Below are positions 11,576 to 48,928 of a DNA stretch of 54,665 nt, one piece after another. Below the pieces are notes generated by a model. That model saw nothing but the letters and a program-made list of their open reading frames with translations. It was not told the origin of the DNA and ran no database searches. The position numbers and the translations under genes are program-made. Each line of letters begins with the position of its first letter. Position 1 is the stretch's first letter. Source of the DNA: an uncultured virus (IMG/VR IMGVR_UViG_3300021256_004112) (taxonomy: Duplodnaviria; Heunggongvirae; Uroviricota; Caudoviricetes); the IMG/VR virus record IMGVR_UViG_3300021256_004112; one strand, 5' to 3'.

Positions 11576-11606
11576 ATTTTACCCCTTTATGAGAAAAAGC
11601 TTCCTA
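11576..11606 (-). promoter_or_regulatory. TAGG-class promoter, copy 1
   Basis: TAGGAAGC-N17-TAAAAT. Confidence 0.6.
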
Positions 11607-11616
11607 CAAAAACAAA

Positions 11617-11740
11617 AAAGCGGGCATAAAACCCGCTTTAAGTGAACCGCAGCAATTCATAGAGAATTACCGCTTCCTGTTTTACAAACAGGCATGACCT
11701 CGGGTTGTTCAAAGCCCTACGCATTAAAAGAAAGGTCAAT
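11617..11740 (-). ncRNA. Candidate structured RNA ending in a terminator
   Basis: Consecutive stems UGACCU/AGGUCA, CCUGUUU/AAACAGG, GCGGUAAUUC/GAAUUGCUGC, then AAAGCGGG/CCCGCUUU and a U tract. Confidence 0.4.
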
Positions 11741-11760
11741 GAAGGAAAAAGAATGGAAAA

Positions 11761-12069
11761 TTAGCTCGCAAACAATTCTTTGATATCGGAAGGCATTTCC
11801 TTATCTTTTGTTTTCCGAAGATACTGGACGACCATAGAACGGTCAAGACCGTACATTTCCGCAAGTGCAGAGATAGAATATTTCTCATGCAATTTACGCA
11901 TCTCCCAAATAATATCGGGGGTAATCCAATGGGGCTTGTTATAATACAAAGCCCTGGCCTTTTCCGGCGTACATCCGTGAACAATAGCGATAGCAAGGCA
12001 GAAATAACCGTCATTACAGGAGTCGGGATTCACATCATACAGCGTTTTTTGTGGCTTATCATCTCTCAT
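11761..12069 (-). CDS. Small HTH DNA-binding protein
   Basis: YSISALAEMYGLDRSMVVQYL HTH; coupled to the DUF739 gene. Confidence 0.7.
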   Translation of the reverse strand: MRDDKPQKTLYDVNPDSCNDGYFCLAIAIVHGCTPEKARALYYNKPHWITPDIIWEMRKLHEKYSISALAEMYGLDRSMVVQYLRKTKDKEMPSDIKELFAS

Positions 12070-12328
12070 AATCCTGCTCCCCCTTGATTTCCTTTTTTAA
12101 CACAGTAAAAAATGCTTTCTTGGTTTCTTCGGGGGTCAGCTTCAATATATTGCTAATCAGGATGATTTCCTGTTGCCGAAACGAAATTCGATTCTTTAAT
12201 TTCAATGATAAAGTAACAGGATTCAGCCCTACGGTGTGGGCAAAGTTTTTATCCGTACCGAATTTCTCGCGGATTTTTCCACGCAGGAAAGAATAATCAA
12301 ACTTCACATTCTGCTTCTGTTCTTTCAT
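12059..12328 (-). CDS. DUF739-family (Cro-like) HTH protein
   Basis: FDYSFLRGKIREKFGT..NFA..VGL...TLSLKL....F.QQEI. Confidence 0.85.
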   Translation of the reverse strand: MKEQKQNVKFDYSFLRGKIREKFGTDKNFAHTVGLNPVTLSLKLKNRISFRQQEIILISNILKLTPEETKKAFFTVLKKEIKGEQDYER

Positions 12329-12546
12329 AATAAAACACCCTTTACAAAAGACATGATAATTTAAATTAATTCTATTTTGCCATAAGGGAACATATTCCCC
12401 CAAACGGAAACAGTTAAACGAAATTTTTAACAGTATTAAAACTTTTGTTTAACTTGTTATTTTCATCTTACCATGTTATACGCAATTTGTAAAGAGTGAA
12501 TCTAATATAATTATTTTGTTTTACAAAATAAAATTTTGTTTTTCTT

Positions 12547-12585
12547 AAATTCCGTATTGATTTTTACTAATTCTCGTGGTATCAT
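12547..12585 (+). promoter_or_regulatory. Promoter of the XRE repressor gene
   Basis: TTGATT-N17-TATCAT with TG; the 14-mer AAATTCCGTATTGA is identical in the integrase promoter. Confidence 0.65.
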
Positions 12586-12657
12586 AAAAATCAAGAAGAA
12601 CACTGAACGCAGTGTGTGGAACGGAATGAAAGGACAATCGGAGAAAGGGAGAGGATT

Positions 12658-13077
12658 ATGGACAGTAAGGAACAGTTATTGAAGGAAGAAGGAATCAAGT
12701 ATGCGCCGTTGCAGGAAAACGAAAAAGGGCAGGCTGCTTTCACCAACCCCAATTCTGTTGCATTCCGTTTGCGCCGTCTGTTGGAGATTAAAGGCATTAA
12801 AGGCGTTGACCTGGCCAAAGCCGTCGGCATCCCCTATGGAAGCTTTTGCCAATGGACAAGCGCACGGAACATTCCCAGACAAAAAGCGCTGGTTGCTATC
12901 GCATTATATACAGGTGTAGACATCTTATGGCTGCTTGGTAAAAAACCGCTGGAAGATATTTATCCCGAACCCAACCCCAATGATGAAGAGAACGAATTAT
13001 TGGAGCTGTATCGGAAGCTCCCGCGGGATAAACAACAGTTATTTGTCATGATGCTCCGCACCGGCTTTTTAAAATAA
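12658..13077 (+). CDS. XRE-family (CI/ImmR-like) repressor
   Basis: RLRRLLEIKGIKGVDLAKAVGI...W....NIP...L..IA....V...WLLG; C-terminal ELLELYRKL; divergent from the DUF739 gene. Confidence 0.85.
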   Translation: MDSKEQLLKEEGIKYAPLQENEKGQAAFTNPNSVAFRLRRLLEIKGIKGVDLAKAVGIPYGSFCQWTSARNIPRQKALVAIALYTGVDILWLLGKKPLEDIYPEPNPNDEENELLELYRKLPRDKQQLFVMMLRTGFLK

Positions 13078-21253: not shown

Positions 21254-22528
21254 TCAACGCTCCATCCCCTTATCTTCTTTCCTGCTGACAGAAATTGTTT
21301 TTTCCCTTGACTTGACACGGGTCATATAAATATAATTACCTACAATTTTATCTAACAGCTTCTTCCCCTCTTCAGATAACTTTGGGTCTTTCAAGGCGGT
21401 TTCCCTAAGATATTCAGGGGCGTCTTTTTGAGAACGGAAGATAGCGACCGAACGGCTGATTATGCTTTCCAAATGCTTCTTATCAGTTCCGTGATACAAC
21501 ATTCTTACGTCCCGAACTGTCTTACCGACTTCATATACATGACGGGTACTGTTAACAGTAAACGCAAGTGTTTTAGTAACATCTAACGGGATACCTTTAT
21601 ATCTCTCATACCGATGGTATTCCATGGCGGGAAGAATATCATGCAGAATCGGATTACCCCGTTTTGTATAAGAATGCCCATTCTTCCAAGCGGAAAATAA
21701 ATCCTTATCATAAATTTTTGATTTGAATTCACCAAAAGACAATCCTTCCAATTGCGGGTAATTTGCAAGTTTTGTCTGTGCCTGCTGATAATACTGATAT
21801 GCTTTCCTTTGAAATTCAATCTCTCCCTGTGTGGAAAATTCACGATACTCTTCCAACATATGTTCGGATTTTAATGTTTCTTTTATATCCATAGCTAACG
21901 TTTCATCCATGCGGAAGTTTTTCAGCCGACCAATATGGGTAGCATGGAATACATCTTTTGCTTTATCTTTCAATGGGAAATCAACAACATCAAGCAGTTC
22001 ATCCGCATCCTTAAACCGCTGTCCCGTAAGTTTACTGTAATCATATTCCGAAAGATACCGAACGGTAAGCTGCATAGGTGATATCCCCGTTTCTTTCCCC
22101 GATAATTCCATTACCGTAATATCCTGTTCCAAATTAGACACAACGGAACGGAAACGATGTAAGGTCGGCTCATCTAACGAAAAATCTTTCTCACCGCCCA
22201 AAGACGACTGGTTTAAAAGATTTATGCTCTCAACATGGAATAAAGCTTTGGCATAATCATCAGGGGTATTTATATTAGCGAACCCGTCACTGTTACGAAC
22301 AGCATTCATAGCGGCTGACAAACCTTCCTCATTTACATTAAAATATTTCTGTACTGCCTTTATATCAGTACCGATAATCGGTCGGTTACTTTCCGCATCA
22401 AAATTACGGAACATGGTATCAACCAAATCAGAAACATCTTTAAATTTTCCCGATTGGATGGTCGAATCCCTTTTTAATTCATCCAGTAAAAATTTCTGCA
22501 CATCTTGTTGAAACTGATTAAATTTCAT
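21254..22528 (-). CDS. Hypothetical protein; N-terminal domain paralogous to 47506-48006
   Basis: Starts MKFNQFQQDVQKFL; ends SRKEDKGMER. Confidence 0.8.
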   Translation of the reverse strand: MKFNQFQQDVQKFLLDELKRDSTIQSGKFKDVSDLVDTMFRNFDAESNRPIIGTDIKAVQKYFNVNEEGLSAAMNAVRNSDGFANINTPDDYAKALFHVESINLLNQSSLGGEKDFSLDEPTLHRFRSVVSNLEQDITVMELSGKETGISPMQLTVRYLSEYDYSKLTGQRFKDADELLDVVDFPLKDKAKDVFHATHIGRLKNFRMDETLAMDIKETLKSEHMLEEYREFSTQGEIEFQRKAYQYYQQAQTKLANYPQLEGLSFGEFKSKIYDKDLFSAWKNGHSYTKRGNPILHDILPAMEYHRYERYKGIPLDVTKTLAFTVNSTRHVYEVGKTVRDVRMLYHGTDKKHLESIISRSVAIFRSQKDAPEYLRETALKDPKLSEEGKKLLDKIVGNYIYMTRVKSREKTISVSRKEDKGMER

Positions 22529-22547
22529 AATATCTTCTCCTTTTTTA

Positions 22548-24011
22548 TCATCTTCCCGCAACATCCGCCATAGCATTATCCATCATCCGAACAGAAGGCA
22601 CAGCCTTCTTAACATGCTGTTTGGTACGATGTTGTGGTATAACCATTAACACGGATTTTGTTTTCAGGAAATTACACATCGTCTTTAAAGGATAGACGGA
22701 ATGTTCTATCTTTTGGCATCCGCCTGCTTTGGCCATATTCAGAACAAAAGATTTCTTTTGTAATAAAACAGGATGGACAGGACGATAAGGACTATGTGTA
22801 TCCCCTGTTTTTTCCACTTCCGCAAATTTACCTTCCAAAGTACATATATATGTTTTTTCTTTAGGGATACTCACATGCAGAACATCTCCTGCACAGATTT
22901 TCTCGACTGTTTTTTCCAATGAATCTTTTATCAACATTTCTGCTTCCTTATGAGATATGGATACAATCTGTTTTCCATAAGAAATCCGATACATTTTTTC
23001 GGGATTGAACGCATGATATTTATCCAATTTCATTTCCGTTAACGCCAAATCGTTGAGTGGAATTATTGCTTTTTTTCCTTCCTTGACCATAATCAGGAAT
23101 TCTTCATGTGCGTTCAGGCAATCTATATTATTAGTTTGTTCTTCAATCCCATTGAGGGCGAATATCGTATGAATTGTCTTTCGGATACCCTGTTTCTTTA
23201 ATAATCCGGACAATGCTGCATCAGCCCATGCTTTCCCATCGCCCAGTCCTAATTCATTGTCTTTCAGTAATATTTTAGAAAATTCATTATCCTGATATGC
23301 AAGATTAGCAACCATTTCCCGAACAGATTTCTTGTCTTTTCCATTAAGGAGCGAAGATAATGTAAGCTCATCAGAATCAGCCAATCCCGCATATTTAGAG
23401 ATGCGCACTCCCTGTTTTAATAACGATACGACCTTAGAAGCTTTTGCTTCCACAGTACACAATACATTGCTATGCACGATGCCGTCCCTGTCCAGCTCCT
23501 GCAACTCTTTACGAACGGGCTGTTCCAACGCCATAGACAACGGCACAGGCTCATAAGGATACCCAAATAAAGCGCCTTCTGGTCCAATATCCAAAAAACG
23601 GACAGGTCCCTGCACATACATAGCAGTATTATCTTTCGTACCGCCATATCCGCCGTCCTGAAATTCGCCCATGACCACATGTTTATCAGCCAGCCAAAGA
23701 GCATATTTTATATGTTGCCCTGTTTCTTCATTAACTGCTTCCAATACTTTTTCTATAAAATTACGGGATGTAAGAGATTTATAACCAAGCGGGAAATGGG
23801 ATGGCGAAAACGGGGTGTCCTGTTCGTCCATTGATTCCAAGACTTTGCCAAGAACACGCCCCATCTCTGTATTTTTTATTATGTTGTAACAACCTTCCAG
23901 ACAGTCGCGGTTTCCTAAATCTACCGTTTCATACAAAAGCACAGAAGCAGCGTCCCGTACCTTACTACCTGAATAGGATTCTGTCCGATATCCCACCTGT
24001 ATATCTTTCAT
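22548..24011 (-). CDS. Hypothetical protein
   Basis: Long ORF, RBS GAGGTG; ends MADVAGR. Confidence 0.8.
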   Translation of the reverse strand: MKDIQVGYRTESYSGSKVRDAASVLLYETVDLGNRDCLEGCYNIIKNTEMGRVLGKVLESMDEQDTPFSPSHFPLGYKSLTSRNFIEKVLEAVNEETGQHIKYALWLADKHVVMGEFQDGGYGGTKDNTAMYVQGPVRFLDIGPEGALFGYPYEPVPLSMALEQPVRKELQELDRDGIVHSNVLCTVEAKASKVVSLLKQGVRISKYAGLADSDELTLSSLLNGKDKKSVREMVANLAYQDNEFSKILLKDNELGLGDGKAWADAALSGLLKKQGIRKTIHTIFALNGIEEQTNNIDCLNAHEEFLIMVKEGKKAIIPLNDLALTEMKLDKYHAFNPEKMYRISYGKQIVSISHKEAEMLIKDSLEKTVEKICAGDVLHVSIPKEKTYICTLEGKFAEVEKTGDTHSPYRPVHPVLLQKKSFVLNMAKAGGCQKIEHSVYPLKTMCNFLKTKSVLMVIPQHRTKQHVKKAVPSVRMMDNAMADVAGR

Positions 24012-24043
24012 GGCACACCTCAACAACCCAATTTCTCTATAAA

Positions 24044-24074
24044 AGTATGCCGCGAAAACACTAAATACTCCCTA
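24044..24074 (-). promoter_or_regulatory. TAGG-class promoter, copy 2
   Basis: TAGGGAGT-N17-CATACT. Confidence 0.65.
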
Positions 24075-36222: not shown

Positions 36223-36238
36223 TTTTCGTCCACCTCTC

Positions 36239-36895
36239 TTATTTTGGTTGATATCCAAGCTGAACTAAATTAGCTGTTGCGTAATCTTTTAATATACAAG
36301 GCTGATAGTTTGCTTCCGCAAATACATGTTGCCAAAACTGTTTGGCTTTCTTATTTTTCTCTAATACATAGAGGCAATATGTACCTTTGTGGGTTTTCAT
36401 AAACTCAAACACAGCATTCCGCATAAATCCTTTTTTACGATACGCAGGCAGCACGAATGATTCCTCAATGTAATAATCCGCATCAGGATGGCAGTTTTTC
36501 CCATACCCCATGACAAGGAAACCAATGACGGTATCCCCGTCCTTAATGTCAATCCATGTGGTACACGGACCAGCATAGACGGAACAAAACGATTCCATAT
36601 CGGTCATATCGTTGGTCGGTCCTTCATTAATAGAACGCAACTCTTCAAGATACTGGAAGAACAGGTTCTTACGCAATTGAAAATTGGCAAACCAATCAGT
36701 TTCTTTTTCTTCCCGTTCCAACCAACACAAAATAGCATTCTTTATATCAGCTTTATATTCTATTCCTTTCTGCTTACCGATACCCGCCTGTGCCGAATAA
36801 AGGTAATGGATAAAAGACGGGGTTAACATTTCTTCATACAAAATATCTGCCGCCCGTTCCGCACGGAAACTACGAATTTCATTAAAATGGTTCAT
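36239..36895 (-). CDS. GNAT-family acetyltransferase
   Basis: IGFL, YIEESFVLPAYRKKGF, VLEKN..AKQFW. Confidence 0.85.
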   Translation of the reverse strand: MNHFNEIRSFRAERAADILYEEMLTPSFIHYLYSAQAGIGKQKGIEYKADIKNAILCWLEREEKETDWFANFQLRKNLFFQYLEELRSINEGPTNDMTDMESFCSVYAGPCTTWIDIKDGDTVIGFLVMGYGKNCHPDADYYIEESFVLPAYRKKGFMRNAVFEFMKTHKGTYCLYVLEKNKKAKQFWQHVFAEANYQPCILKDYATANLVQLGYQPK

Positions 36896-37404
36896 TTGCT
36901 TTTCACCTCATGGTCGTACCCATCCCAAATCCGCCACATCGTTTTCATGTTATGCCAATCTTTACGAATACAGGATACCGTATAAGAAATAACCATTCCT
37001 GCAATAAAAGCTAACGCAATATCCAAAAAAGAGGATGGCAATGTATTGAAAATGTAATAAGCATCTACTTTATATTTCCAAAACCGAACGGCTTCCCGCA
37101 AGACGGATAACAGCATACCAAGAGAAAATAATATCAAAAAGACTGCGATACAAAGACGGACGGAAGATTTTAACCTTCTTTGATACCATTCTTTCTGTTT
37201 TATGCGGCCGCAAGGAACACTATTACTTTTACTGCAGCCACACTTTGTCGCATCCCCTTGCAATACACCAAATTCACATTCCCAACAGTATCGTTTCATA
37301 CATTTTGCAAAAAGCCATGCAACGAAACGGACAGATAAACCAATCCAAAGAATCTGCATCATTATGTACAGCAACATATCCAATAAAGAAAACATAGCTT
37401 TCAC
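36892..37404 (-). CDS. Membrane protein (about 3 TM) with a Cys cluster
   Basis: Hydrophobic segments; CWEC...CGC...C. Confidence 0.65.
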   Translation of the reverse strand: MKAMFSLLDMLLYIMMQILWIGLSVRFVAWLFAKCMKRYCWECEFGVLQGDATKCGCSKSNSVPCGRIKQKEWYQRRLKSSVRLCIAVFLILFSLGMLLSVLREAVRFWKYKVDAYYIFNTLPSSFLDIALAFIAGMVISYTVSCIRKDWHNMKTMWRIWDGYDHEVKSK

Positions 37405-38039
37405 CTTTCCATATCAGAAACAGCCAATCGCTTTTTTACTTCCCATTCCTTCTTTTCTTTCTTGACCTCATTTTCAAACATAAGCGAATAGAATTCCATT
37501 TTTTTAGAAACGAAAGACTTACGCAGTAAAGAAGTAGGCGTTTTGAAATATTTTGCTTTTTCCATTGGCACAAACTTAGGTTTTACCATAACATTGATAA
37601 CGGCATGCTTTTGGTAAAGATTAACAGTATCGCCAACACCAATTAGGGTAACATCCCTTAATGCGCCTTTTTTCACCTTCTGTGCCAACTCTTCCATAAA
37701 AACTTCTAACCGTTTTGGAAGCGGTTTAAAACCCAATTTTCCCTGTTTATCCAACTCCACTTCATCCGAGGTAAGAGGCGACGGCATAGAATAAAAGACA
37801 TTATTTTTCACTGATGTTTTCAAAAACATCACTACATCTGAAAGCTGCTTATATTCCGCTTCGCCCTGTGGGCATCCATACCCTTTATCAAGTATGACAT
37901 TCAAAAAAGCGTCCTTTCCTGCTACAGCATAACTCGGCCGAAGCTCAATATATTTTATTGGCAACAGTTTTTCTTTTTGTGCTAAATCGCGAATAGCAAT
38001 AAGTAAATCCAAATCATTCCGATTGATTGCATTTTCCAT
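37401..38039 (-). CDS. Hypothetical protein
   Basis: Ends KKRLAVSDMER. Confidence 0.75.
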   Translation of the reverse strand: MENAINRNDLDLLIAIRDLAQKEKLLPIKYIELRPSYAVAGKDAFLNVILDKGYGCPQGEAEYKQLSDVVMFLKTSVKNNVFYSMPSPLTSDEVELDKQGKLGFKPLPKRLEVFMEELAQKVKKGALRDVTLIGVGDTVNLYQKHAVINVMVKPKFVPMEKAKYFKTPTSLLRKSFVSKKMEFYSLMFENEVKKEKKEWEVKKRLAVSDMER

Positions 38040-38042
38040 ATT

Positions 38043-38651
38043 TCACATCCCCATGCTTATATTTTGCTCCTTGTGATGTTCCATTTCTTTATGATGCATG
38101 GCTTTCTTCTCCCTTTGTTCTCTGTTATATTCATTCGTCCGCTCAAAAATCTTAATTTCTTCCCGCATCAACAACGCAAATTTATCGCGGTCCATAAAAT
38201 TATGGCAGAACATACGGGCGGACTGCTCGCAAAGATTGGCCAGCTTATCATTCAATAAATGACCAGAGGCAGACAATTCTTTATTAAACTTTGAAAAATT
38301 ATTGGGAACACGACTCATTAACAACACAGGATAATGGGTTTCTGATACATCATCATAAACAGAAGAATAAAGCCTTTCCCCATCCTGTTTTACATTCTTA
38401 GACACATGACGGGCGACTTTTTCCTGATAAGATAAAATTAAACTTTCCTTCACCTTATCCACATCAACAGGTCTACCCACATTAAAATGTTGCGCTAAGA
38501 ATTTAGCTTCTTTTGGAAAACCAAATGACTGGATATCCAAAACCAACTGGTCTTTATCCTTAATCGTCATCTTTTTACGCAAAACGCCGATACTTTCCAA
38601 TGCCCGCATAAAACTCTTATTGCTTAATTCATCCATCTTATTTTCCATCAA
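38043..38651 (-). CDS. Hypothetical protein
   Basis: Ends KEQNISMGM. Confidence 0.75.
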   Translation of the reverse strand: MMENKMDELSNKSFMRALESIGVLRKKMTIKDKDQLVLDIQSFGFPKEAKFLAQHFNVGRPVDVDKVKESLILSYQEKVARHVSKNVKQDGERLYSSVYDDVSETHYPVLLMSRVPNNFSKFNKELSASGHLLNDKLANLCEQSARMFCHNFMDRDKFALLMREEIKIFERTNEYNREQREKKAMHHKEMEHHKEQNISMGM

Positions 38652-38654
38652 AAA

Positions 38655-39212
38655 TCACCTCGAAGCTTCTAACCCGTTATTTTTCAAATTCTCAGAAGCG
38701 GGTCTCTTCAAACTAACTGTTTTATCATAGCGTTCCACCCACATTCCTAACTGCTGGCAAATAACTTTCGGCGCTCTTTCATCCATAAGGAAATTCCCGT
38801 CACGGATAGAATCTATAATTCCCTTATAACAGGAACGCTCCAAGGAGTTTAACGGTTTCCAAACCTGTAACATTCCCTCGTTAAACACTTCTTTTTCCTT
38901 TTCTGTACGGTGTTCCGTTACGAATTGCACCATATCTTTCATTTTGCTGAACAATGCAGGTCTATCCGTTTTAATTTCCTGTAATTTTTGCGTTGCGCGG
39001 GTAGCATACCAAAGCGCTTTTTCCAAATCTTCTTTTCCGTTCTTGTGATGGGTACGCCATGTGTACTTAACAACATTCTGTAAATCCCCGGCAATCTCAC
39101 CTACATATCCGCCAACAGCTACAGCAATATAATCAATACATTCAACCTTACCCTGTCCCGCATAATGAGAAGGGTGGTTGACCATATCTTGTGCTTCTTT
39201 TTTACTTTCCAT
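38655..39212 (-). CDS. DUF3310 (SaV-like) domain protein with C-terminal extension
   Basis: DMVNHPSHY...ECIDYI...NVVKY.WR..KNG.EDLEKA.WY. Confidence 0.85.
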   Translation of the reverse strand: MESKKEAQDMVNHPSHYAGQGKVECIDYIAVAVGGYVGEIAGDLQNVVKYTWRTHHKNGKEDLEKALWYATRATQKLQEIKTDRPALFSKMKDMVQFVTEHRTEKEKEVFNEGMLQVWKPLNSLERSCYKGIIDSIRDGNFLMDERAPKVICQQLGMWVERYDKTVSLKRPASENLKNNGLEASR

Positions 39213-39232
39213 ATCATATTCTCCTTTTTTGC

Positions 39233-40189
39233 TTATCGCCCACATTCTATCGTTTTCCCATCACGGTAAAGATTCCACTTTTCCGTCAGTTCTTTTTTCT
39301 TTTTAATCAGCAAAGGTCCGCTTTTTCCACCAGCCAGTCCCTCAATTTCTTTTTTATGTTCTTTTATAAAAGTTTTGGCCATATTCATCCGGTCTTTTAC
39401 CTTCTTTTCCGTAGAAAGCGCCAATTCTCTTTTTTCCTTAAAATAGGGCAAAATAAGGACAGGAATGCAATCTTTCGTTTTTACGACAGCCGACAACTGA
39501 TGGGTTCCGTCCTTTTTATGAATCCATCTTGTCAAAAAATACGGCTCTTTATGACGGGTGCATTTCCGTATCATATAACTATCCTGTTCCAATATCCGGT
39601 CTTTTTCTTCCATTTCTTTCAAACAGGTATCAAACATCTTAGAACAGGAATCATCCGAACTCCAGCCATGAAAATTCCGTTCTCCCGTACTCCGAATCAG
39701 GAAATTCCGTTCCATCTCTTCCCACAGAGAATTACGGCTGACAACTTCCCGTTCCAATATTTCCATAATGTTTTCTTTCATGTTGTCTTTGTTTTGCTGG
39801 TAAATTTCCTGTACTTTTTCTATGGAACAGTCATAGATTTCGGTTGACCTCTCAGAACGCCCCATATATCGGAACGAAAGGAACGCATGATTTTTCAATA
39901 CATCTTCAATTGCCTTCCCTTCCTCTTTATCACACACGGCAGTCAATTCCATTGGATGTATATAAACCTCTCTGCCGTTCTTCGTCATGGTGGCACAGCT
40001 TATTCCGTCCCTTGGGTTATATTGCCAACCCCTCTTTTCCAATACAGGAAAAACAAACTTTTTAATCTCCATATTAAAAGCTGCAATACGGTCAGGGTCG
40101 CCACCCTTACCCCATTCATAACCAGAATCAACCCGAAACTGTATATTTTCCATCTTTTCCACATCAGATGGTATTTGTAAAGGTTTCAT
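39233..40189 (-). CDS. Hypothetical protein
   Basis: RBS AAGGGGG; ends IECGR. Confidence 0.75.
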   Translation of the reverse strand: MKPLQIPSDVEKMENIQFRVDSGYEWGKGGDPDRIAAFNMEIKKFVFPVLEKRGWQYNPRDGISCATMTKNGREVYIHPMELTAVCDKEEGKAIEDVLKNHAFLSFRYMGRSERSTEIYDCSIEKVQEIYQQNKDNMKENIMEILEREVVSRNSLWEEMERNFLIRSTGERNFHGWSSDDSCSKMFDTCLKEMEEKDRILEQDSYMIRKCTRHKEPYFLTRWIHKKDGTHQLSAVVKTKDCIPVLILPYFKEKRELALSTEKKVKDRMNMAKTFIKEHKKEIEGLAGGKSGPLLIKKKKELTEKWNLYRDGKTIECGR

Positions 40190-40205
40190 GATATACCCCC
40201 CTTTT

Positions 40206-42143
40206 TTACACACGCCCAATCCCGTCTTGCCTGTCTGCAGACTGTGATAAAGGACGGGATGCTGTCAAAGAACGATACGGCGACATATCATTCTGTATCA
40301 TCTTAGCCGCAGTCTGTATGGGACATTCCCGAATCGCCACATTCTTATTGGCATCATAAAAATGAAGCTTCCAATAAGGCGGGAAACGCAGTACCAAAGT
40401 ATCAATATTTTTATCTTTCCCCACAGGCTTGCCTTTCCGCACCATATATTCCGGCACCTTGAAAGACCAGCCCTTTTTATCGCCCTTTGCCATACGAAAA
40501 GTACGGAAACGGTTATTACGGTTATAAGAAGAAACATTAACCTGCTTATCCTGTAAAGGAAAATCCTGCATACGGTCAGCAAAGACGACAATCGTTTGGT
40601 AATTATATTGCGGTTTTGATATTGGTTGTAATGCTTCTGCTACTTTTGATTGGGAAACCTCTACTTCCTGCTGTTCCTTATCATTCACAACCGAAACGCT
40701 TGGCATTGACTGATTTTGAGATATTGTCTCTTCTTTCATTTCCTGTTTGTCGTCTTTCCCGTTTTCCTGTACAACAGGGATATCCGAAGATTTATGTTCG
40801 ACAGATTCAGTCGGTCTTATTTCCACATTTTCCTTTTCTGCTGTTTTTTCAATATCCGCCTTCTGTTCTGCAGCCTCTTTTACTTCAACTTTTTGTTTTG
40901 TTTCTTCCTGTTTTTGTATTGCCTCTTGCTTTTCTTCTTTTTTTTTAGTCTGTTCCACATGCATCAATCCTAAATCAAACGCATGCGGGGTAAGCAGTTT
41001 TGGCTCTTTATCGCCTTTGAACAAGATTAAGAGATTGCCCTTTTCATTCTTGCCGGTAAAGATACCTTCACCAAAAACATTATGGACGATAACAGCGCCG
41101 TCTTTTAATGTTTCAGCGATTTCTTTTCCTTTATTCCCATCTATTGTTTTTCCGTTGCTTAATACCACACTCGCCTTTTCATTCTTCCCTGACGGAACTG
41201 ATTTATTCTCCGTTTCAGGAAAAAGAATCCCCTGCGAATCCTTGTCTGTAAAAGTCGCTTCTTTTACCGTTGCGGCAGTTGGGATTTTACTGACGGGAAG
41301 AACTTCCTTTTCTTCCTGTAATTGTGCTTTATTTACTTCACACTCATACATAAATTCTTTTAACCTGCATAAGTCGCAGGAAGGGATTAAGGAAGAGTCC
41401 ATTAAATCCAAATCCAAAGGAAGCTCTTTTTCTTTGACAGGTTTATACTCTTTACCTGCTTCTGTATTTAAAATCATATCGTATGCTTCTAACTCATGGA
41501 TGACCAAATGGTCATTTCCCTCTTTACGGGAAGAGAATACAGACGCATAATCCCCAAAAAGCTCTTCTGAAAAAGAAGTTCCATAAACCCTGTCCACTTC
41601 TTCTAAATAATGAGAGACAGGATTATCAAGAACAGGATTTTCACCTGCACCCAAGGAAGTCGCAAAAGACTGGATAGACGCTTCCAAGGAAGCAAGCTGG
41701 CGAAAATCGTCTTCCATGCCAGCTTCTTTAATTTGCGGATACCGCTCCATATAATCCTGCTGAACAGCATCCACCTCATTACTATCCGCTATTTGAAGGG
41801 AAACAAAATTACGGGAAGGAACAGCAATTTCCATCCCATTATCCGACAGCGAAGGCAGGTTATCAATTGCGTCCCTTGCCTGTTGCATATCCTGTTGCAT
41901 CTCTTCCAAAGGAATAAAGCCTTTCGCATAATCATCCATAGAATCAACCAACAAATTCATCCGACGCACAAATCGGAGCATTTTGAAAAAATCAGGTTTA
42001 GACATGGAAGCCGTATCAATACTTTCCACGATATGACTTTTATATGCGTCCACATCCAATCCGCGGTAATACGGTTTATTGTTTTTAGCCATCCCGCCAT
42101 ACTTAGCAAAATCTTTAAGTTCTTTCGTAGTTAAGACTTTCAT
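40206..42143 (-). CDS. Multidomain hypothetical protein with a Tudor/SH3-like module
   Basis: GAVIVHNVFGEG...LLILF motif, charged linker, ends ASRPLSQSADRQDGIGRV. Confidence 0.75.
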   Translation of the reverse strand: MKVLTTKELKDFAKYGGMAKNNKPYYRGLDVDAYKSHIVESIDTASMSKPDFFKMLRFVRRMNLLVDSMDDYAKGFIPLEEMQQDMQQARDAIDNLPSLSDNGMEIAVPSRNFVSLQIADSNEVDAVQQDYMERYPQIKEAGMEDDFRQLASLEASIQSFATSLGAGENPVLDNPVSHYLEEVDRVYGTSFSEELFGDYASVFSSRKEGNDHLVIHELEAYDMILNTEAGKEYKPVKEKELPLDLDLMDSSLIPSCDLCRLKEFMYECEVNKAQLQEEKEVLPVSKIPTAATVKEATFTDKDSQGILFPETENKSVPSGKNEKASVVLSNGKTIDGNKGKEIAETLKDGAVIVHNVFGEGIFTGKNEKGNLLILFKGDKEPKLLTPHAFDLGLMHVEQTKKKEEKQEAIQKQEETKQKVEVKEAAEQKADIEKTAEKENVEIRPTESVEHKSSDIPVVQENGKDDKQEMKEETISQNQSMPSVSVVNDKEQQEVEVSQSKVAEALQPISKPQYNYQTIVVFADRMQDFPLQDKQVNVSSYNRNNRFRTFRMAKGDKKGWSFKVPEYMVRKGKPVGKDKNIDTLVLRFPPYWKLHFYDANKNVAIRECPIQTAAKMIQNDMSPYRSLTASRPLSQSADRQDGIGRV

Positions 42144-42211
42144 AAGACACCTCACACAAAAAAATGTATATTAATAACGGAAGACCCGATGATGATACAT
42201 CGGGTCATAAA

Positions 42212-43378
42212 TTATCCGGCAAACAATTCCTGCTGTTCACCCTGTTCGGCAGAAATCGTTCTTGCTTTATTGCGACTCTTTACTTTAGGTCGTTTTGCCT
42301 GTTGGAACGCATAACGCTTTTCATCCGCCTCACAACATTCTTTTAAACAGCCGGACGCTACCTGCGCCCAATGCTGATGGTCCAATGCAGTAGCGCAGAT
42401 AGAAGCGTTCCGCGCCTGATAACGGATTTCCTTATTTACCTTTGCCAATGTCTCATCGAATTCTTTCGGTGGTAAAAGGGAATCCACATTCGGCATTTTC
42501 ATTTGGACATTATCCATAGAAAAAGAAACATCATAAACATAATGGGCAGGAATCGGCGCTTGCGAACCCCGTACCTTTTCAGGGAATTCCTGCAGTAAAG
42601 ACGATTCAAACAACACGCCTGTCTCTTTTTGGATAGTATCTTTATCCTGCAGGCGCATATGCCCCTGATAATCCGAAAAAACAGTACGGTCAACGCCTAT
42701 CCCCAGCTCATCATCCACGGCAAGGGAATATAAAGCCTGGCTCAATGCGTCGTCCCACTGTTCCTTCCCGCGCCGTTCCATCTGCTGCACATCCTTGATA
42801 AAAGGAATATACGGATACCGCTTTTCGCCGTCCAACGCTTCACGGACTGCTTTTACGGAAATACTGCCTTCCTGTTGATATTTCTCAGATTCCGAAAGAT
42901 AAGCCAACGCTTTTTCTTTCAATTCCTTCACATTATAATTTCCCTTCTCATTCGGATAGAACAAAGACGAAGAAGTATCGGGACGGGAAGAAATTTCAAC
43001 CCCTAACTCATCCGCAATATCATGTAATTTTTCATCAATGCGGGAGACCGCTTCTCTCGTGCCAAAAATTTCTACACCCGTAGAACGGAAATGGACGTAA
43101 AAATTCTCAGAATACATACGAGGGAAGGATACAGTCTGAATCGGCTTATTTTCTTCTTTGTCTTCTTCCTTGATTTCTGCCACATCTTCATTTTCCATCA
43201 TAAAATCAGGCAACGATTTCTTTTTCTCCGTTTCAGTACGCTCGGGGAAACTTACTGTCCAAGCCTCATTTCCGATATTCTTTTCCGAATCCATAAAAGA
43301 CGCCATCTCATTAGCAATCTTTTCCACATTCTCATTATCCAGCTTGTATTTCACAGCATATACAGGTTCTTTCAGCAT
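42212..43378 (-). CDS. Hypothetical protein
   Basis: ATG 43378 with RBS GAAAGGAG; basic tail; hairpin at 42183-42206. Confidence 0.8.
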   Translation of the reverse strand: MLKEPVYAVKYKLDNENVEKIANEMASFMDSEKNIGNEAWTVSFPERTETEKKKSLPDFMMENEDVAEIKEEDKEENKPIQTVSFPRMYSENFYVHFRSTGVEIFGTREAVSRIDEKLHDIADELGVEISSRPDTSSSLFYPNEKGNYNVKELKEKALAYLSESEKYQQEGSISVKAVREALDGEKRYPYIPFIKDVQQMERRGKEQWDDALSQALYSLAVDDELGIGVDRTVFSDYQGHMRLQDKDTIQKETGVLFESSLLQEFPEKVRGSQAPIPAHYVYDVSFSMDNVQMKMPNVDSLLPPKEFDETLAKVNKEIRYQARNASICATALDHQHWAQVASGCLKECCEADEKRYAFQQAKRPKVKSRNKARTISAEQGEQQELFAG

Positions 43379-43415
43379 AATTGCAACTCCTTTCAAATTC
43401 TTTTTGCTTGTTCTT

Positions 43416-43446
43416 ATTGTATGACAGAATGTAAAAACACTCCCTA
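43416..43446 (-). promoter_or_regulatory. TAGG-class promoter, copy 5
   Basis: TAGGGAGT-N17-TACAAT. Confidence 0.7.
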
Positions 43447-43461
43447 CACTGAGCAATACCA

Positions 43462-43845
43462 TCAAGCACCAATTACGTCTGCAATCGCAGAATCAATAAA
43501 CTGGCTTTCCTGTACATGTTGCGTATTTTTACGACCATGTTCCTTATAATGTCTTTTTACCTTCCGATTAGGTTGCGTCACGCTTCGCACATCCGTAAAC
43601 ACAACCATTTCGCTATCCCCTAATACTTCAAGGTCTGTCATAGCCCGTTGCGCATCAATCATAAATTTTCTTGCGCCTTGTCGAATATGATGGATTTTCC
43701 GCTCCCTGCACAATGCTCGAATAAACATAGGTGAAAGCCCCATTCCTTTGGCAAATTCGTTAACGGAAACATATTTCGCTGACCATGTTACAGGGTTGTA
43801 TACGGGCGTATTTTTCATTTCATTCTTATCATTCATTTTCCTCAT
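43462..43845 (-). CDS. xis: Excisionase-like HTH protein
   Basis: YVSVNEFAKGMGLS...IR.LCRE.KI.HIRQG.RKF.ID; divergent from the integrase. Confidence 0.8.
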   Translation of the reverse strand: MRKMNDKNEMKNTPVYNPVTWSAKYVSVNEFAKGMGLSPMFIRALCRERKIHHIRQGARKFMIDAQRAMTDLEVLGDSEMVVFTDVRSVTQPNRKVKRHYKEHGRKNTQHVQESQFIDSAIADVIGA

Positions 43846-43898: not shown

Positions 43899-43929
43899 AC
43901 AATACCACGAATATTTTCATTACTCCCTA
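43899..43929 (-). promoter_or_regulatory. TAGG-class promoter, copy 6 (xis)
   Basis: TAGGGAGT-N17-TATTGT with TG extension. Confidence 0.65.
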
Positions 43930-44012: not shown

Positions 44013-45332
44013 ATGGGGCATGGTGACGGCACGATTCGGGAAATTTTCGACAAACGGATTAACAAAAGCAGGCTGGAAGCAAAGATATTTATTGACGGCA
44101 AACCGAAAACAGCCCGTTTTGAATGCACCAAATACGGACGGAAGGAAGCGAACGAATGGCTGCGCTCCATACGCAGGGACAAAGAAGATGAAATCCATCC
44201 GTCTAACCAAACATTAGGAGAAGCAATCGGAATCTATATTAAGAACAATGATGCCGCCGAATTTGAACGGCAAAACATAAAGCTCAATACATTAAGTCGA
44301 ACATTCTCTACCATTAAAGGATTACCCAAATGGCTAAAGGATATGCCTGTATCAGAAGCAAAAAAAGACGAAATAACAAAAGCGTTGAGCGAAATGTCAA
44401 AACGCATGGGGAAAAACGGAACGGATAAAGCATTAGCTTTCTTAAACCGTTTCTTTAAAAATGAAGTAGATAATGGACGCTTACGCTCAAACCCATGCAG
44501 CATGATAAAACGCAGTAAAGCAAAAGAAACGAAAGAAATTGAAATTTACTCCAAAGAAGAAATCATCCAACTTATCCGTGGCATCCATTACATCATGAAC
44601 AACGGGACATACCACAGCATCACACACAACTACGATTTATTTTTCAAACTGTTGCTGACGACAGGCATGCGTATCGGCGAGCTGTTGGCACTCCAATGGG
44701 AACAAATTGACTTAACTGAAGGCAAAGAAATGATAAAAGTAAAATATACATTAGATTCCCATTGGTACAAGAATGCAGTACAAAAAGGATTGATGTTAAA
44801 TACGCCAAAGACACAAAGCAGCAACAGGAATATACCCCTACTATCCCCGCATGTTATCCGAACGCTAAAAAAGGAAAAACAGAAAAAAGGAAAACACATA
44901 TTCCTTTTCGAAACCAAAGATGGAAAAGCAATAGACTATCACAACTTTTACAAGACCTGGGACAATATTGGAAAAGAAGCGGCAAGGCAATGCCCGCACT
45001 GCCATACCATACGCCCAAACGATTGGATATGCGAATGTGGGAACCATGTTACCCGTCGCAGGCGTATCTGCCAACGATGTAACAGGGAACGCCCGCAGGA
45101 ATGGATATGCCCCACATGCGGGAACACAGTTAGGGAAATCCATAAAAAACCGCATACGACCCGCCATACATTTATCTCTTTTATGATTGCAAAAGGATAT
45201 CCTATCGCTACAATAAGCAAAATCGCAGGGCATTCCAGTCCCAAGGTAACATTGGACGTATATACCCATGCTACCGACAATTACATAGAAGAACTGCGAA
45301 GTTTGGTAAAAAACAAAAACAAAGGACAATAA
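44013..45332 (+). CDS. int: Tyrosine integrase with zinc-ribbon insertion
   Basis: G.G.G.I arm-binding N-terminus, TGMRIGELLAL.W, PKT..S.R, HTTRHT, GHSS...T...Y. Confidence 0.95.
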   Translation: MGHGDGTIREIFDKRINKSRLEAKIFIDGKPKTARFECTKYGRKEANEWLRSIRRDKEDEIHPSNQTLGEAIGIYIKNNDAAEFERQNIKLNTLSRTFSTIKGLPKWLKDMPVSEAKKDEITKALSEMSKRMGKNGTDKALAFLNRFFKNEVDNGRLRSNPCSMIKRSKAKETKEIEIYSKEEIIQLIRGIHYIMNNGTYHSITHNYDLFFKLLLTTGMRIGELLALQWEQIDLTEGKEMIKVKYTLDSHWYKNAVQKGLMLNTPKTQSSNRNIPLLSPHVIRTLKKEKQKKGKHIFLFETKDGKAIDYHNFYKTWDNIGKEAARQCPHCHTIRPNDWICECGNHVTRRRRICQRCNRERPQEWICPTCGNTVREIHKKPHTTRHTFISFMIAKGYPIATISKIAGHSSPKVTLDVYTHATDNYIEELRSLVKNKNKGQ

Positions 45333-45376: not shown

Positions 45377-45662
45377 TATGTCCTATGTTATGTCATATGT
45401 TTTGTAATATGTTTAGGTACAAACAACTACTTGTTTTTTATCATTACTCCAAACAACAACAGAAAATTAAAAACCCCTCAAGTGCAGTATTTATGCAACT
45501 TGAGGGGTTATTTTCATGGCAGGGGCAGAAAGAATCGAACTCTCAACACACGGTTTTGGAGACCGTTGATACAATACACTTCTGTTACGGATATAAGCGC
45601 ATTTCGAAAGAATTTATTTGTTATGTCATATGTTTTGTAAGATGTTTTAGTTTGTAAGACAT
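45377..45662. mobile_element. attP-like site: tRNA-derived core flanked by arm-type repeats
   Basis: 12-bp-period T[AT]TGT..[TG]ATGT repeats at 45377-45412 and 45622-45662; exact 22-mer TGTTATGTCATATGTTTTGTAA at 45386 and 45619; hairpin 45472-45509. Confidence 0.8.
45517..45566 (-). pseudogene. 3' half of tRNA-Trp(CCA), att core
   Basis: ACGGT-CTCCAAA-ACCGT anticodon arm, GAGAG-TTCGATT-CTTTC T arm, TGCCCCTG-CCA end; D arm and 5' acceptor strand absent. Confidence 0.9.
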
Positions 45663-45677: not shown

Positions 45678-46055
45678 TTACCGTTCATTCCCTAAAACCA
45701 TACCATCTAAATCTTTCTGCAATTTCTGAATCATAGTCGTACTTGGATTGCGGGTCAAGGAAGAAAGAAAATTGCGGTGAACTCGATTGAAATACGAAAC
45801 TTTCTCGTTAATGTAATTGGCTTTTACGGAAGAAACATTTGTAAACTGGTGTACCTTACGCTCGTGGGCATACATGTCCTGCATAAACACGCCATAGACA
45901 AGCCCAAGCTTTTTATCTTTTTCCCAACGGCAATATAATTTGCCTCTGCGTTCCGCCTCTTCCTGTTCCCGTTTAATACGGTTCAGGTCCGGCACCCGAC
46001 CAGTCCGCATCTGTTCTTTAATTGCCTGTTGGATAACTTTATTGCTAAAACCCAT
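45678..46055 (-). CDS. Hypothetical protein
   Basis: Ends GMVLGNER. Confidence 0.65.
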   Translation of the reverse strand: MGFSNKVIQQAIKEQMRTGRVPDLNRIKREQEEAERRGKLYCRWEKDKKLGLVYGVFMQDMYAHERKVHQFTNVSSVKANYINEKVSYFNRVHRNFLSSLTRNPSTTMIQKLQKDLDGMVLGNER

Positions 46056-46136
46056 ACTGTACCCCCTATACCCCATATACCATTACAACATCATTATCTG
46101 CCATCTATCGTTTTTCCCATCATAACACAACCAAAA

Positions 46137-46703
46137 TCAGAGTTCAAGGGAAAGGTCCCCATTCTTTTCCACCAGTTTAGGACGCAACGGTCGTTTATTG
46201 GCAGGATATCTTTCAATAAATGCGTCTACCTTTTCATTTTCCAAAAATACCATTCCCGCCTTTTCCCGAAAAGCATTGGAACATAACAATTTGCTTAATC
46301 GGGTCGCATTTTTCTTTTTCAGGCGGAAGCCAATCATCATATCATCGGTCTGTTGGTCAAGGAACGCATCTTTTGTTGCGGCCGCCACATAAAGATACTG
46401 CGGTTCTTGCCAATCCTTCTTTTCATTAAATACAATAAAAGACAATGTATAGGTATCAGGTTTATTCCTTTCCAGTACCCTGCCGACAGGAACAGTAAAC
46501 TCATCCCCAAACTCTTTGACAAACAGTTCCTGCAGATTTTTGGCATAAGCGGAAAACAACTCTTTATCCTTTGCCATCGCTTTCAAAGCTTCATTCAGAT
46601 TATAGGGTGAATCTTCCAACTGAGGTATATTCTTACAACTGATACCACCAATATGGAACACATCTTCTTCCATGCCCAATTCTTTATTATACATAATCAT
46701 CAC
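46137..46703 (-). CDS. Hypothetical protein
   Basis: Ends KRPLRPKLVEKNGDLSLEL. Confidence 0.75.
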   Translation of the reverse strand: MMIMYNKELGMEEDVFHIGGISCKNIPQLEDSPYNLNEALKAMAKDKELFSAYAKNLQELFVKEFGDEFTVPVGRVLERNKPDTYTLSFIVFNEKKDWQEPQYLYVAAATKDAFLDQQTDDMMIGFRLKKKNATRLSKLLCSNAFREKAGMVFLENEKVDAFIERYPANKRPLRPKLVEKNGDLSLEL

Positions 46704-47491
46704 CTCGTATTTTCATACCGTTTATCAATGTAACGGTTATCATCAAACATTTTGGGATAACCCGCACTTTTCGCCGCATTGGCTACTCTGTGTTGCACGG
46801 CAAAAAACATATCCATCCCGCTACCGTGGACAATCATAGTCCCTTGCGTCATCCTTGCTTTTGATATTGGCATATTGATAGCATTCGCTACCATGCCTGT
46901 TACATCATAATCTTGAATAGAAATCCGCATATAGCGTTTATCATTCCCCTGCCGTTTCGGGTCTTTCACCCATTTTTTCATATCAATCTCCAATTGGATA
47001 GGGGTTTTGAATTTATGATTTTTACAGAATTGGAATAATGCTGTTTTCCGTTCCCGCTCAACTAAGATTTGATGGATGGCTCCGGAGGCGTCCATCATAT
47101 TATCAATCATCTTTTTTGTATTGACCTGGGTACTTAAAAGCTCGCCTCGGCTTTGCTTATCCATAAGCTGATGCATTTTCTGACGGAACGCTTCCGCAAA
47201 ACGGGTATCCGCTTCCCCAGCTTTTTCTTTATATTCTAAAGTAATAGTATAGCCAATTCGTTCAGGATTATTTTTCAATTCATCCCATTTCACATCATAA
47301 ATAGCGACAAAGCGTTTTACTTCACGGGTTTCTTTAGAAACCTCAGACGGGTTCAAATAAACTTTTTGGGATGGATTCAAGATAACGCCATTATCTTTCA
47401 AAGTAGCAATAAACTCCTTTGAAAGCGGGGATTTGTATTCATATTTATCAGGCAACAACTTACTTTTCACAACCGTAAAATCTTTTTCCAT
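46700..47491 (-). CDS. Hypothetical protein
   Basis: C-terminal V.GSGMDM.F motif; coupled to the next gene. Confidence 0.75.
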   Translation of the reverse strand: MEKDFTVVKSKLLPDKYEYKSPLSKEFIATLKDNGVILNPSQKVYLNPSEVSKETREVKRFVAIYDVKWDELKNNPERIGYTITLEYKEKAGEADTRFAEAFRQKMHQLMDKQSRGELLSTQVNTKKMIDNMMDASGAIHQILVERERKTALFQFCKNHKFKTPIQLEIDMKKWVKDPKRQGNDKRYMRISIQDYDVTGMVANAINMPISKARMTQGTMIVHGSGMDMFFAVQHRVANAAKSAGYPKMFDDNRYIDKRYENTR

Positions 47492-47505
47492 AACATTTAC
47501 CTCTC

Positions 47506-48006
47506 TTATCGTTCGACGCCTTGTACCGACAAAGTATTCGCATTCTGTTTTGATTTTCGAGCCAAAAACTTAGACTCTTTACGGGTAATATCTCTTTCGA
47601 TATCATCTATCATTTCCAACATTTCGCCTTTTAACTGCGCATCCAAAATAAAATCTTTCAATCCGGAAAGACTGCTACGGGACAAAAGGTTTTTACTTTC
47701 CTCGCTGGCCATCTGTAAAAGAAAACCGTTCGGGTTATCCATAAAATTTTCCAAAGAAACGGACAAACCCTGATTTCCTGCTTCTTTTAATGTATCCTTA
47801 ATACCATCGTTCCAGTTATCAATCACATACATTGCCGAATCCTGTACCGTATTCCCAACCAACGGGAAATTACTTGCAATATCCGACTCAAAAGCGGTGT
47901 CAGCCAAAGAAGATGTATTCTCAAACTGTTGTCCTTCCGCTTCTATCGCATCCAGCCTGTCATAAAGAAAATCTTTTACATCCTTTTGAAAACCATTAAG
48001 CTTCAT
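47506..48006 (-). CDS. Hypothetical protein, paralog of the 21254-22528 N-terminus
   Basis: Starts MKLNGFQKDVKDFL; ends LSVQGVER. Confidence 0.75.
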   Translation of the reverse strand: MKLNGFQKDVKDFLYDRLDAIEAEGQQFENTSSLADTAFESDIASNFPLVGNTVQDSAMYVIDNWNDGIKDTLKEAGNQGLSVSLENFMDNPNGFLLQMASEESKNLLSRSSLSGLKDFILDAQLKGEMLEMIDDIERDITRKESKFLARKSKQNANTLSVQGVER

Positions 48007-48029
48007 CAGTAAAACCCCTTTCCTGAAAA

Positions 48030-48866
48030 TCACTTACTGAAATCATTTGTATTTTCGTTTGCCTTTTTCGTATTTTCTTTCTTCAAAGACCGTATTGGCG
48101 CAATTCCACATTCTTTCAATGCCTGATTCAAATCCTTTAATGTTTTTATGGCATTGGCTTCTTTATTGCCGATACTTTCCAAGAAATCCTTTACCGTTTC
48201 CCCACGAAACGAAACGCCGCCTGTTTCTCCTCTGCCGTCTTTCAGTTCATAATCCAAATACCGTTGGATACTCTTACTTACCTGTAAATTCTCTTCCTTC
48301 CCATTAGCAAGAGACATTTCAGATTGCTCATATAACCGTTGAACGGCATCATACGCTTTTTGACAGTCTCTTATATTGGCAAACTTCCCTTTGGAAAAAT
48401 CATTCCCCTCTTGCAACTCGTTGGTCAAAAGCTTACCTGCCGTAAAGGTCAGACACTCTTCCATTAATTTAGGCAGATTTTCTTTCTCGTATAAATGTTC
48501 CTTTTCCACGCGCACCGCTTCATATTCACTGTACGGGTAAAAAGGATGTTGTCTGACTTCCGCAACGGTCTTATCCATAACCTCTTTATTTTCCCGTACA
48601 AACTGTTCCAGAAGATGAAGACTTTCTTTTTCAAACTTTTCATGGTTTTCAATATAATCATCCATCAAGGTATCCAAACCTTTACCTTTCAAATGAGAAA
48701 TTTCTTTCGCCAAAGAAAAATCTATGCCACCATCAAAAGAAGAATCAATCACATCACTTACGGGAACAGAACCGTATTCTTCAACAATATCTTCCAAATG
48801 ATTAACACGCCGTTTCATGATACGGCTCGCCATAATTTCCAAATCATTCATCTTTTTCATAATCAT
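48030..48866 (-). CDS. Hypothetical protein
   Basis: RBS GGAGG; basic tail. Confidence 0.75.
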   Translation of the reverse strand: MIMKKMNDLEIMASRIMKRRVNHLEDIVEEYGSVPVSDVIDSSFDGGIDFSLAKEISHLKGKGLDTLMDDYIENHEKFEKESLHLLEQFVRENKEVMDKTVAEVRQHPFYPYSEYEAVRVEKEHLYEKENLPKLMEECLTFTAGKLLTNELQEGNDFSKGKFANIRDCQKAYDAVQRLYEQSEMSLANGKEENLQVSKSIQRYLDYELKDGRGETGGVSFRGETVKDFLESIGNKEANAIKTLKDLNQALKECGIAPIRSLKKENTKKANENTNDFSK

Positions 48867-48897
48867 CTGCCTCCGAATTTTATAATTTCCTTCTTGT

Positions 48898-48928
48898 ATT
48901 ATCGCGTAAAACGACTCAATACTCCCTA
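48898..48928 (-). promoter_or_regulatory. TAGG-class promoter, copy 7
   Basis: TAGGGAGT-N17-GATAAT. Confidence 0.65.

Follow-up and report, generated by a model that had tools for sequence, protein, structure and literature searches.

A predicted second promoter class ahead of the predicted excision gene and tail-bearing proteins of an uncultured integrative element

Several bacterial elements and phage T4 switch on promoters with factors of their own. In SXT/R391 integrative and conjugative elements (ICEs) and IncA/C plasmids, the activators SetCD and AcaCD replace the missing -35 element at transfer genes, island xis genes and operons of unknown function; the -10 of these promoters is poorly conserved and the motif overlaps the -35 only in part (PMC4542580). 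The middle promoters of phage T4 have a host-type -10 and a MotA box, centred near -30, in place of the -35 element, and MotA binds this box through a saddle-shaped double-wing domain together with a co-activator (PMC6755090). In Tn916, an ICE of Bacillota, the split sigma factor Sig7-Sig8 acts as a dedicated positive factor that drives xis and the transfer genes from one main promoter within a positive feedback loop (bioRxiv 10.64898/2026.10.01.756105). Conjugation machines are also known to transfer proteins besides DNA, including substrates of F and pED208, the SogL primase, ArdC and polyvalent proteins (PMC8406263, PMC5512222). Here we describe a set of predicted promoters with a GGRAGY box in place of TTGACA on an uncultured integrative element, IMG/VR record IMGVR_UViG_3300021256_004112; a stretch of 54,665 nucleotides of it is called the window.

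Plain coordinates refer to the window, which makes up the final 54.7 kb of the 116,665-bp record (a provirus in the IMG/VR classification); the prefix G000 marks coordinates on the whole record. On balance, we favour reading its nine box promoters, seven of them in the window (Table 1), as a second, element-private promoter class, in which the -10 would be recognised by host sigma-A and GGRAGY by a factor of the element, so that xis would be turned on together with a group of proteins predicted to leave through the element's type IV secretion system. An element-encoded activator in place of the -35 at many promoters of one element would be the likeness to SetCD and AcaCD; however, the present sites have a good -10, a short box in exact -35 register and no upstream conservation, and the host is a Negativicute. 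No Pfam match to the FlhC/FlhD family was found among 116 open reading frames (ORFs) of G000, the record being a fragment. In sigma appropriation of the MotA/AsiA kind, sigma region 4 is bound and remodelled by the phage factor. With the T4 MotA/AsiA system the sites share a good host-type -10 and a box replacing the -35 element, but here the box occupies the -35 hexamer and the candidate reader is a helical helix-turn-helix (HTH) protein; neither AsiA nor MotA was seen among the matches examined. As in Tn916, a dedicated positive factor is proposed to drive xis and the transfer programme, and the differences are at least nine dispersed promoters, no box at the candidate gene and no sigma-2-like partner found. 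The parallel to conjugative protein transfer lies in a primase-like gene (G000 50749-51894) and, in a relative, an ArdC gene within box operons; the cargo known from the accessible parts of those sources lacks a shared terminal tag or a promoter class of its own, whereas here some 25-30 mostly orphan proteins share both. Three features appear to be new: related elements exchange the hexamer in exact register, the candidate reader has no name, and the promoter class is coupled to a set of tail-tagged proteins. No description was found in a literature search that included the motif and the host genus and outside which most subscription papers and supplements lay.

The pattern TAGGRAGY has exactly seven matches in the window, all on the minus strand, and these are the seven 31-bp elements listed in the initial annotation, whose coordinates, strand and sequence proved accurate throughout. 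Taken alone the 8-mer is mildly enriched (7 against 3.8 expected, with at least 7 in 6 of 100 shuffles), and with NANNNT required at exactly 17 nt, the spacing that had been claimed for every site, the count of 7 stands against 0.29 expected (0 of 100 shuffles). As a guard against post-hoc choice, hexamers with at least two G/C were ranked across the whole record by how often they stand 17 nt upstream of a -10-like site in intergenic DNA, and GGGAGT came first (7) with TTGACA second (6). Two further GGRAGY sites lie beyond the window (G000 8254 and 53707) with AA or GG instead of TA before the hexamer, and an alignment of all nine reads TAGGGAGT.TTT, then an unconstrained spacer, then TA.A.T, and shows no upstream second half-site, dyad or other upstream conservation. 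The box proposed initially, TAGG[GA]AG[TC], thus stands as the conserved occupant of the -35 position, but its core is narrowed to GGRAGY, since the TA varies and also precedes most TTGACA promoters. The spacers of the seven sites are unrelated in sequence, and the sites are therefore not copies of one repeat.

In layout the sites are of the sigma-70 type, with a -10 of conserved A and T placed 17 nt from the -35 hexamer and before a gene start, and transcription would be expected to begin about 7 nt past the -10, while GGRAGY takes the place of the TTGACA-like -35 of canonical sigma-A in 9 of 9. They had been described as intergenic and 30-55 nt before a start codon; they do lie ahead of starts, but the starts, each equipped with a Shine-Dalgarno (SD) sequence, fall 29-62 nt after the -10 (62 for xis), and the 43416-43446 site lies within the longest possible ORF 42212-43465, yet upstream of the SD-ATG start of that ORF. 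A hairpin followed by a U-run (-12.8 to -19.4 kcal/mol) precedes five of the seven window sites, and a terminator-like hairpin also precedes five of 12 canonical promoters; placed after such hairpins, the box promoters therefore appear to be heads of separate units. The sites very probably constitute a real promoter class. One plus-strand occurrence of AAGGAAGT at 15265 overlaps an SD sequence and was classed as non-box.

G000 also carries many near-perfect copies of TA-TTGACA-17-TATAAT, before genes for maintenance and cargo (methylases, ssb, recD2, erf, bamA and int), as against nine promoters of the GGRAGY class. A TA before the hexamer is usual in both classes and the -10 is alike in both; given this shared TA, the GGRAGY class looks like the TTGACA class with its -35 exchanged. 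The two classes stand before different genes. Behind the box are xis and operons of mostly orphan proteins, the primase-like gene among them, with basic, hydrophilic C-termini that often close in ER, GR, EL or GM. After removal of 22 shadow or tRNA-overlapping ORFs, a rule describing these tails is passed by 18 of 26 box-operon proteins and by 7 of 68 others. C-terminal net charge is 2.5 in box operons and 0.1 elsewhere (p 4e-5), and the C-terminal hydrophobic share is 0.20 versus 0.32 (p 2e-6). An operon below 10484 has its own TTTACG promoter after a terminator, and one of its 11 proteins passes the tail rule; if these 11 genes are counted as box genes, p becomes 0.001 for net charge and 0.003 for hydrophobic share. 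Positively charged signals at the C-terminus have been described in MobA and in substrates of VirB/D4 (PMC10025392). A basic, hydrophilic end, as in C-terminal signals of type IV secretion systems (T4SSs), is found in the box operons of both G000 and its relatives. That the tails are T4SS signals is reasonably probable.

Relatives of the element occur in two metagenome-assembled genomes (MAGs), G123 and G124, both incomplete like G000. The G123 pieces amount to 109 kb, and we infer that contigs C42, C14 and C1 of this MAG form one element; 28 kb of G124 were compared, and there the element adjoins host genes past its integrase. A cI-cro-HTH cassette is common to all three elements and is the only regulator cassette that their sequenced parts share. 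In G123, six sites (0 in 40 shuffles) fit the pattern GCAASG-RWAA plus a -10 at 17 nt. They precede ArdC, YdcK-solenoid proteins and further proteins with tails, and one lies within virB11, some 480 nt upstream of virB2-virB4. G124 has two copies of GTCGGG-17-TATAAT (0 in 40 shuffles), each before a tail operon. The box of each element is missing from the other two, and tails are found in 10 of 15 proteins of the relatives' box operons and in 6 of 72 others. Later searches with the patterns added three of the G123 sites and one of those in G124. Three other G123 matches were discounted as probably due to chance: C14:11602, which overlaps an SD sequence and start codon, C12:3380, which lies within an ABC gene, and C37:11657. 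With three boxes in one register within one host family, an element-encoded reader is favoured over a host factor, and the box is probably read by a factor of the element. The element-specific regulon and transfer programme first suggested from the window alone gain support in that a box stands before xis and tail-protein operons in G000 and the relatives' own boxes stand before ArdC, tail proteins and virB2-virB4. The last of these lie on G123:C14, which encodes VirB2, 4, 5, 6, 8, 9, 10 and 11, VirD4 and a MobA/MobL relaxase and is tied to the G000 family by several homologues in common, not by one contig. For the G124 element, no VirB4, T4SS, coupling protein or relaxase was found; VirD4 matches at C97 and C138 of that MAG belong to other contexts.

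The best candidate for the reader is the HTH protein of the shared cassette (11761-12069), which the initial annotation had already named as a possible activator. It matches phrog_11376, a family without functional annotation, at E 1e-5 over residues 19-97, and has about a dozen close relatives in addition to a wider family. Its homologues stand in the same cassette on G123 and G124, with recognition helices that differ among the three elements. Among host genomes, homologues were present in 3 of 140 of the family (two elements and one prophage-like locus) and 8 of 401 of the class, the remainder being distant. The predicted structure (predicted local distance difference test, pLDDT, 84) matches generic HTH folds at Z 5-6, including sigma-4 domains and Mu C/Mor, with none decisive. 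Activators of the Mor/C type combine a Mor-type dimerisation domain with an HTH and bind a dyad site upstream of the -35. The candidate may resemble these activators in its HTH: residues 46-91 align to Mor 1rr7 at Z 4.9 (root-mean-square deviation 3.0 over 46 residues) and Mu C is matched at Z 5.3, only the HTH part aligning. Mor is not among the 25 families shown for the candidate, and the box sites contain no dyad. The candidate's own operon has a TTTACA-17-TAAGAT promoter. Host sigma-A has canonical sequences in regions 2.4 and 4.2 and is therefore expected to read TATAAT and TTGACA, not GGRAGY. The reader would, by a slight preference, act together with host sigma-A and not as an element sigma; that the HTH protein is this reader is somewhat less likely than not.

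A different reader, conceivable but rather unlikely, would be a sigma factor, whole or split, that the element itself encodes, of the Tn916 Sig7-8 type or the SigN type of pBS32, with a sigma-A-like -10 specificity and an altered one for the -35. The HTH protein could then be the region-4 half, and the sigma gene would lie in the unsequenced part of the incomplete G000 record or be too divergent for Pfam. An exact -35 register, a fixed 17-nt spacer and a shared upstream TA are what would be expected of sigma region 4, weak Sigma70_r4 or r4_2 matches occur in 2-3 of 14 HTH family members, sigma-4 domains are among the fold matches, and the Tn916 work offers an ICE precedent (bioRxiv 10.64898/2026.10.01.756105). 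However, the encoded sigma factor that the initial annotation had offered as one reader of the box was not recovered: Sigma70_r2 and r4 have no match on G000, the Sigma70_r2 matches in G123 (five) and G124 (four) each have a counterpart in the element-free G001, so that neither MAG holds an extra one (all three records being incomplete), and no sigma match occurs among the element ORFs of G123 and G124 covered by two scans (30 and 60 ORFs). Moreover, the box promoters and the element's TTGACA promoters share the same -10.

It is improbable that the sites are ordinary weak sigma-A promoters working from the -10 alone, with the box as an operator through which CI, Cro or the HTH protein silences the cargo. 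The element does encode repressor-like proteins, and a box at -35 could block polymerase; yet an extended -10 TG is found in one of the seven window sites and a TTGACA-like -35 in none, which would leave little to repress, and the box is non-palindromic and its spacing is identical at all nine sites, a constancy not required of an operator. It is very improbable that an alternative sigma factor or an activator of the host reads the box. The hosts do have 2-4 Sigma70_r2 matches beyond sigma-A, and the AGGA core presumably recalls the -35 boxes of sigma-H, but such a factor would have to serve three different hexamers in three related elements of one host family. Nor is there host enrichment, a comparison that the initial annotation had proposed as a check and that came out in favour of an element-specific motif: the window has 128 matches per Mb, the five likely host genomes (2.0-2.6 Mb each) contain 4, 5, 4, 5 and 6 matches, below the 7-14 of reversed-pattern controls, and the 140 family genomes show no general excess over reversed controls. 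Although GGGAG and GGAAG resemble SD sites and the 8-mer alone is barely enriched, an SD-like or chance sequence that is no part of a promoter is extremely improbable, as a -10 follows all seven boxes at exactly 17 nt and the genes have SD sequences of their own farther on.

Several points weigh against an element-private class that drives xis and exported proteins. The tail rule was devised after the sequences had been seen, and 8 of the 26 box genes fail it; six minus-strand genes are tailed and have no box (RlaP-like 26563-27630, CCA-like 28198-29781, 17840-19435, 17387-17833, 13213-13521 and cro), and overlapping ribosome-binding sites may account for some of the tails. In the relatives, boxes first came to notice before tail genes (3 of 6 in G123, 1 of 2 in G124) with patterns fitted afterwards, and G124 has only two sites. 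The co-induction of xis proposed in the initial annotation agrees with the box before xis in G000 but is not family-wide, for in G124 it is a canonical TTGACA promoter that stands before xis, so the wiring varies among relatives. There is no clear box at the virB8 operon of G123, and no T4SS, coupling protein or relaxase match among the 116 ORFs of G000. As for the reader, the HTH protein is tied to the box by shared presence alone, its fold matches are generic, a paralogue on a canonical promoter (G000 4840-5379) is a second candidate, and a sigma factor or other activator could sit in the missing part of G000. Between strains, a deletion abuts the 5' side of the 43446 box and a substitution its 3' side (two other strains), and changes at the 43929 promoter lie in its spacer or immediately 5' of the box, while box and -10 are spared; with 0 changes in 28 box positions versus 6 events over some 190 further non-coding positions, these are too few for significance.

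If the box promoters are a private class read jointly by sigma-A and an element factor, their use could be ordered as follows. A CI-like repressor would keep the cro-HTH operon off, and its release would yield the HTH protein, which may recruit polymerase after binding the box, a non-palindromic site for a single HTH. Host RNA polymerase would read the -10 through sigma-A, the element factor taking the place of sigma region 4 at GGRAGY. Expression of cro-HTH would then switch on xis and the cargo operons, followed by excision and by transfer of DNA and protein. The tails would be recognition signals for VirD4 and the regulon a protein cargo that the donor loads into the recipient alongside the DNA. 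A bolder and unlikely extension is that giant ICEs of Negativicutes employ phrog_11376 proteins of about 100 amino acids as -35 readers, one per element with its own hexamer and mutually orthogonal, and inject dozens of tail-tagged proteins into the recipient cell during conjugation. If so, a widespread unnamed protein family of phages and ICEs would acquire a function, and a large natural set of conjugation effectors would come to light.

The box promoters before the predicted excision gene and the tailed proteins would represent the element's own transfer-programme switch. Most known element activators that take the place of the -35 come from Proteobacteria and T4. A box that changes between relatives with spacing and -10 held fixed amounts to a natural swap experiment on small factors redirecting the sigma-A holoenzyme, and orthogonal promoter-activator pairs for Bacillota may become available from it. 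Moreover, one promoter class combined with one C-terminal tag gives a testable list of proteins possibly delivered to recipients, a matter that few systems have answered so far.

Table 1. Features of the element (window coordinates unless prefixed G000)
Feature	Coordinates	Strand	Remarks
Predicted promoter TAGGAAGC-17-TAAAAT	11576..11606	minus	directly 3' of terminator-like hairpin; ahead of 10625-11548 (tail protein)
Predicted promoter TAGGGAGT-17-CATACT	24044..24074	minus	3' of terminator-like hairpin; operon 22548-24026 and 21254-22576, both tail proteins
Predicted promoter TAGGGAGT-17-TACATT	25440..25470	minus	operon 24773-25429 and 24126-24776
Predicted promoter TAGGAAGT-17-TACAAT	26455..26485	minus	3' of terminator-like hairpin; gene 25658-26425
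Predicted promoter TAGGGAGT-17-TACAAT	43416..43446	minus	ten-gene operon 34657-43378
Predicted promoter TAGGGAGT-17-TATTGT (extended -10 TG)	43899..43929	minus	xis-like gene; divergent from integrase
Predicted promoter TAGGGAGT-17-GATAAT	48898..48928	minus	five-gene operon 45678-48866; other side of att
Candidate HTH reader, 102 amino acids	11761..12069	minus	N-terminal helix pair and C-terminal three-helix HTH; phrog_11376
HTH paralogue	G000 4840-5379		same N-terminal helix and two HTHs; canonical promoter
Cro-like DUF739 gene	12059..12403	minus	overlaps start of HTH gene
CI-like repressor	12616..13077	plus	divergent from cro-HTH
xis-like HTH_17 protein	43462..43845	minus	weak Pfam match, E 0.002
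Tyrosine integrase	44013..45332	plus	canonical TATTGACT-17-TATGAT promoter
attP-like 55-bp core	45514..45568	no strand	identical to 3' part of Succiniclasticum ruminis tRNA-Trp; non-host flanks on both sides
Five box-headed orphan genes	21254..26425	minus	basic hydrophilic tail at end of all five
Ten box-headed genes	34657..43465	minus	one GNAT, one DUF3310, others orphans; 7 score as tail proteins
Eleven genes, mostly tailed	45678..54665	minus	five up to 48866 follow the box; promoter for six beyond 49025 outside record

The Pfam scan of the 116 ORFs identified an integrase, the xis-like protein, SSB, RecD2, ERF, a toprim primase, methylases, BamA and adhesins on G000, and no capsid, portal, terminase or tail gene in this incomplete record. 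An integrase, xis and an att site, as expected of an integrative element, are all present, and box promoters stand on either side of the att core. From its non-host flanks we infer that this core is an attP junction of an excised or circular form; contigs about 95% identical from four other studies cover both sides of the junction, and none listed bridges it. G000 likely belongs to a giant ICE whose transfer region is missing from the record, and its host is likely the rumen bacterium Succiniclasticum. The labelled sequencing runs that contain the stretch come from sheep or other animal gut, and no RNA run is listed among them. Single-protein scans of IMG/VR found no relatives by integrase, 25658-26425, RlaP-like protein, HTH alignment or dispersed repeat; the integrase alignment returned one 1.1-kb contig and otherwise distant integrases of other elements. 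In the plasmid collection two orphans had no match and the RecD2 match was generic, and homologues of 25658-26425 were found in 0 of 140 family genomes. The YdjM gene was discarded as an element marker because it is also present as a host gene, and the stretches examined in G126 are not an element of this kind.

The RlaP-like nucleotidyltransferase and CCA-adding-like enzyme at 26563-29781, tailed and without a box, would be RNA-repair cargo if exported. G000 also encodes 23 tRNAs and a transfer-messenger RNA (tmRNA; tag AKNVVNIFARRSVAPVALAA), 24 in all by ARAGORN, in clusters at G000 41956-46256 and 10635-11186, and the G124 relative (C63 16046-18361) has 10 tRNAs and a tmRNA 74% identical; an Rfam scan of the window gave no match. 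On G123, Cas12a (Cpf1 domains) lies beside an ArdC operon at C42 5537-9418, and a Pfam match to the beta-lactamase family at C14 1072-1926 is on the same contig as the T4SS genes. G124 has Tad/TadE-like pilin genes at C63 8964-10846.

A dispersed repeat of about 30 nt, with core GGTCAATAAAGAAAGG then RATRARGGRAAW, is present in about 13 copies on G000, mostly immediately 3' of a stop codon or 5' of a start codon (window 7271, 13551, 28192, 43861, minus; G000 4723, 5470, 13297, 23547, 32752, 40901, 47561, 53764 and 55719). It was found neither in the G123 or G124 pieces nor in IMG/VR, and is possibly a cassette junction or translation-start module. BamA/Omp85 and trimeric autotransporter-like adhesins (ESPR, YadA anchor, SLH) are encoded at window 1310-3241 and G000 27139-39589, and opposite-strand ESPR N-terminal fragments suggest invertible 5' ends. 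A cytosine methylase with intein domains occupies two overlapping frames at G000 57249-61191.

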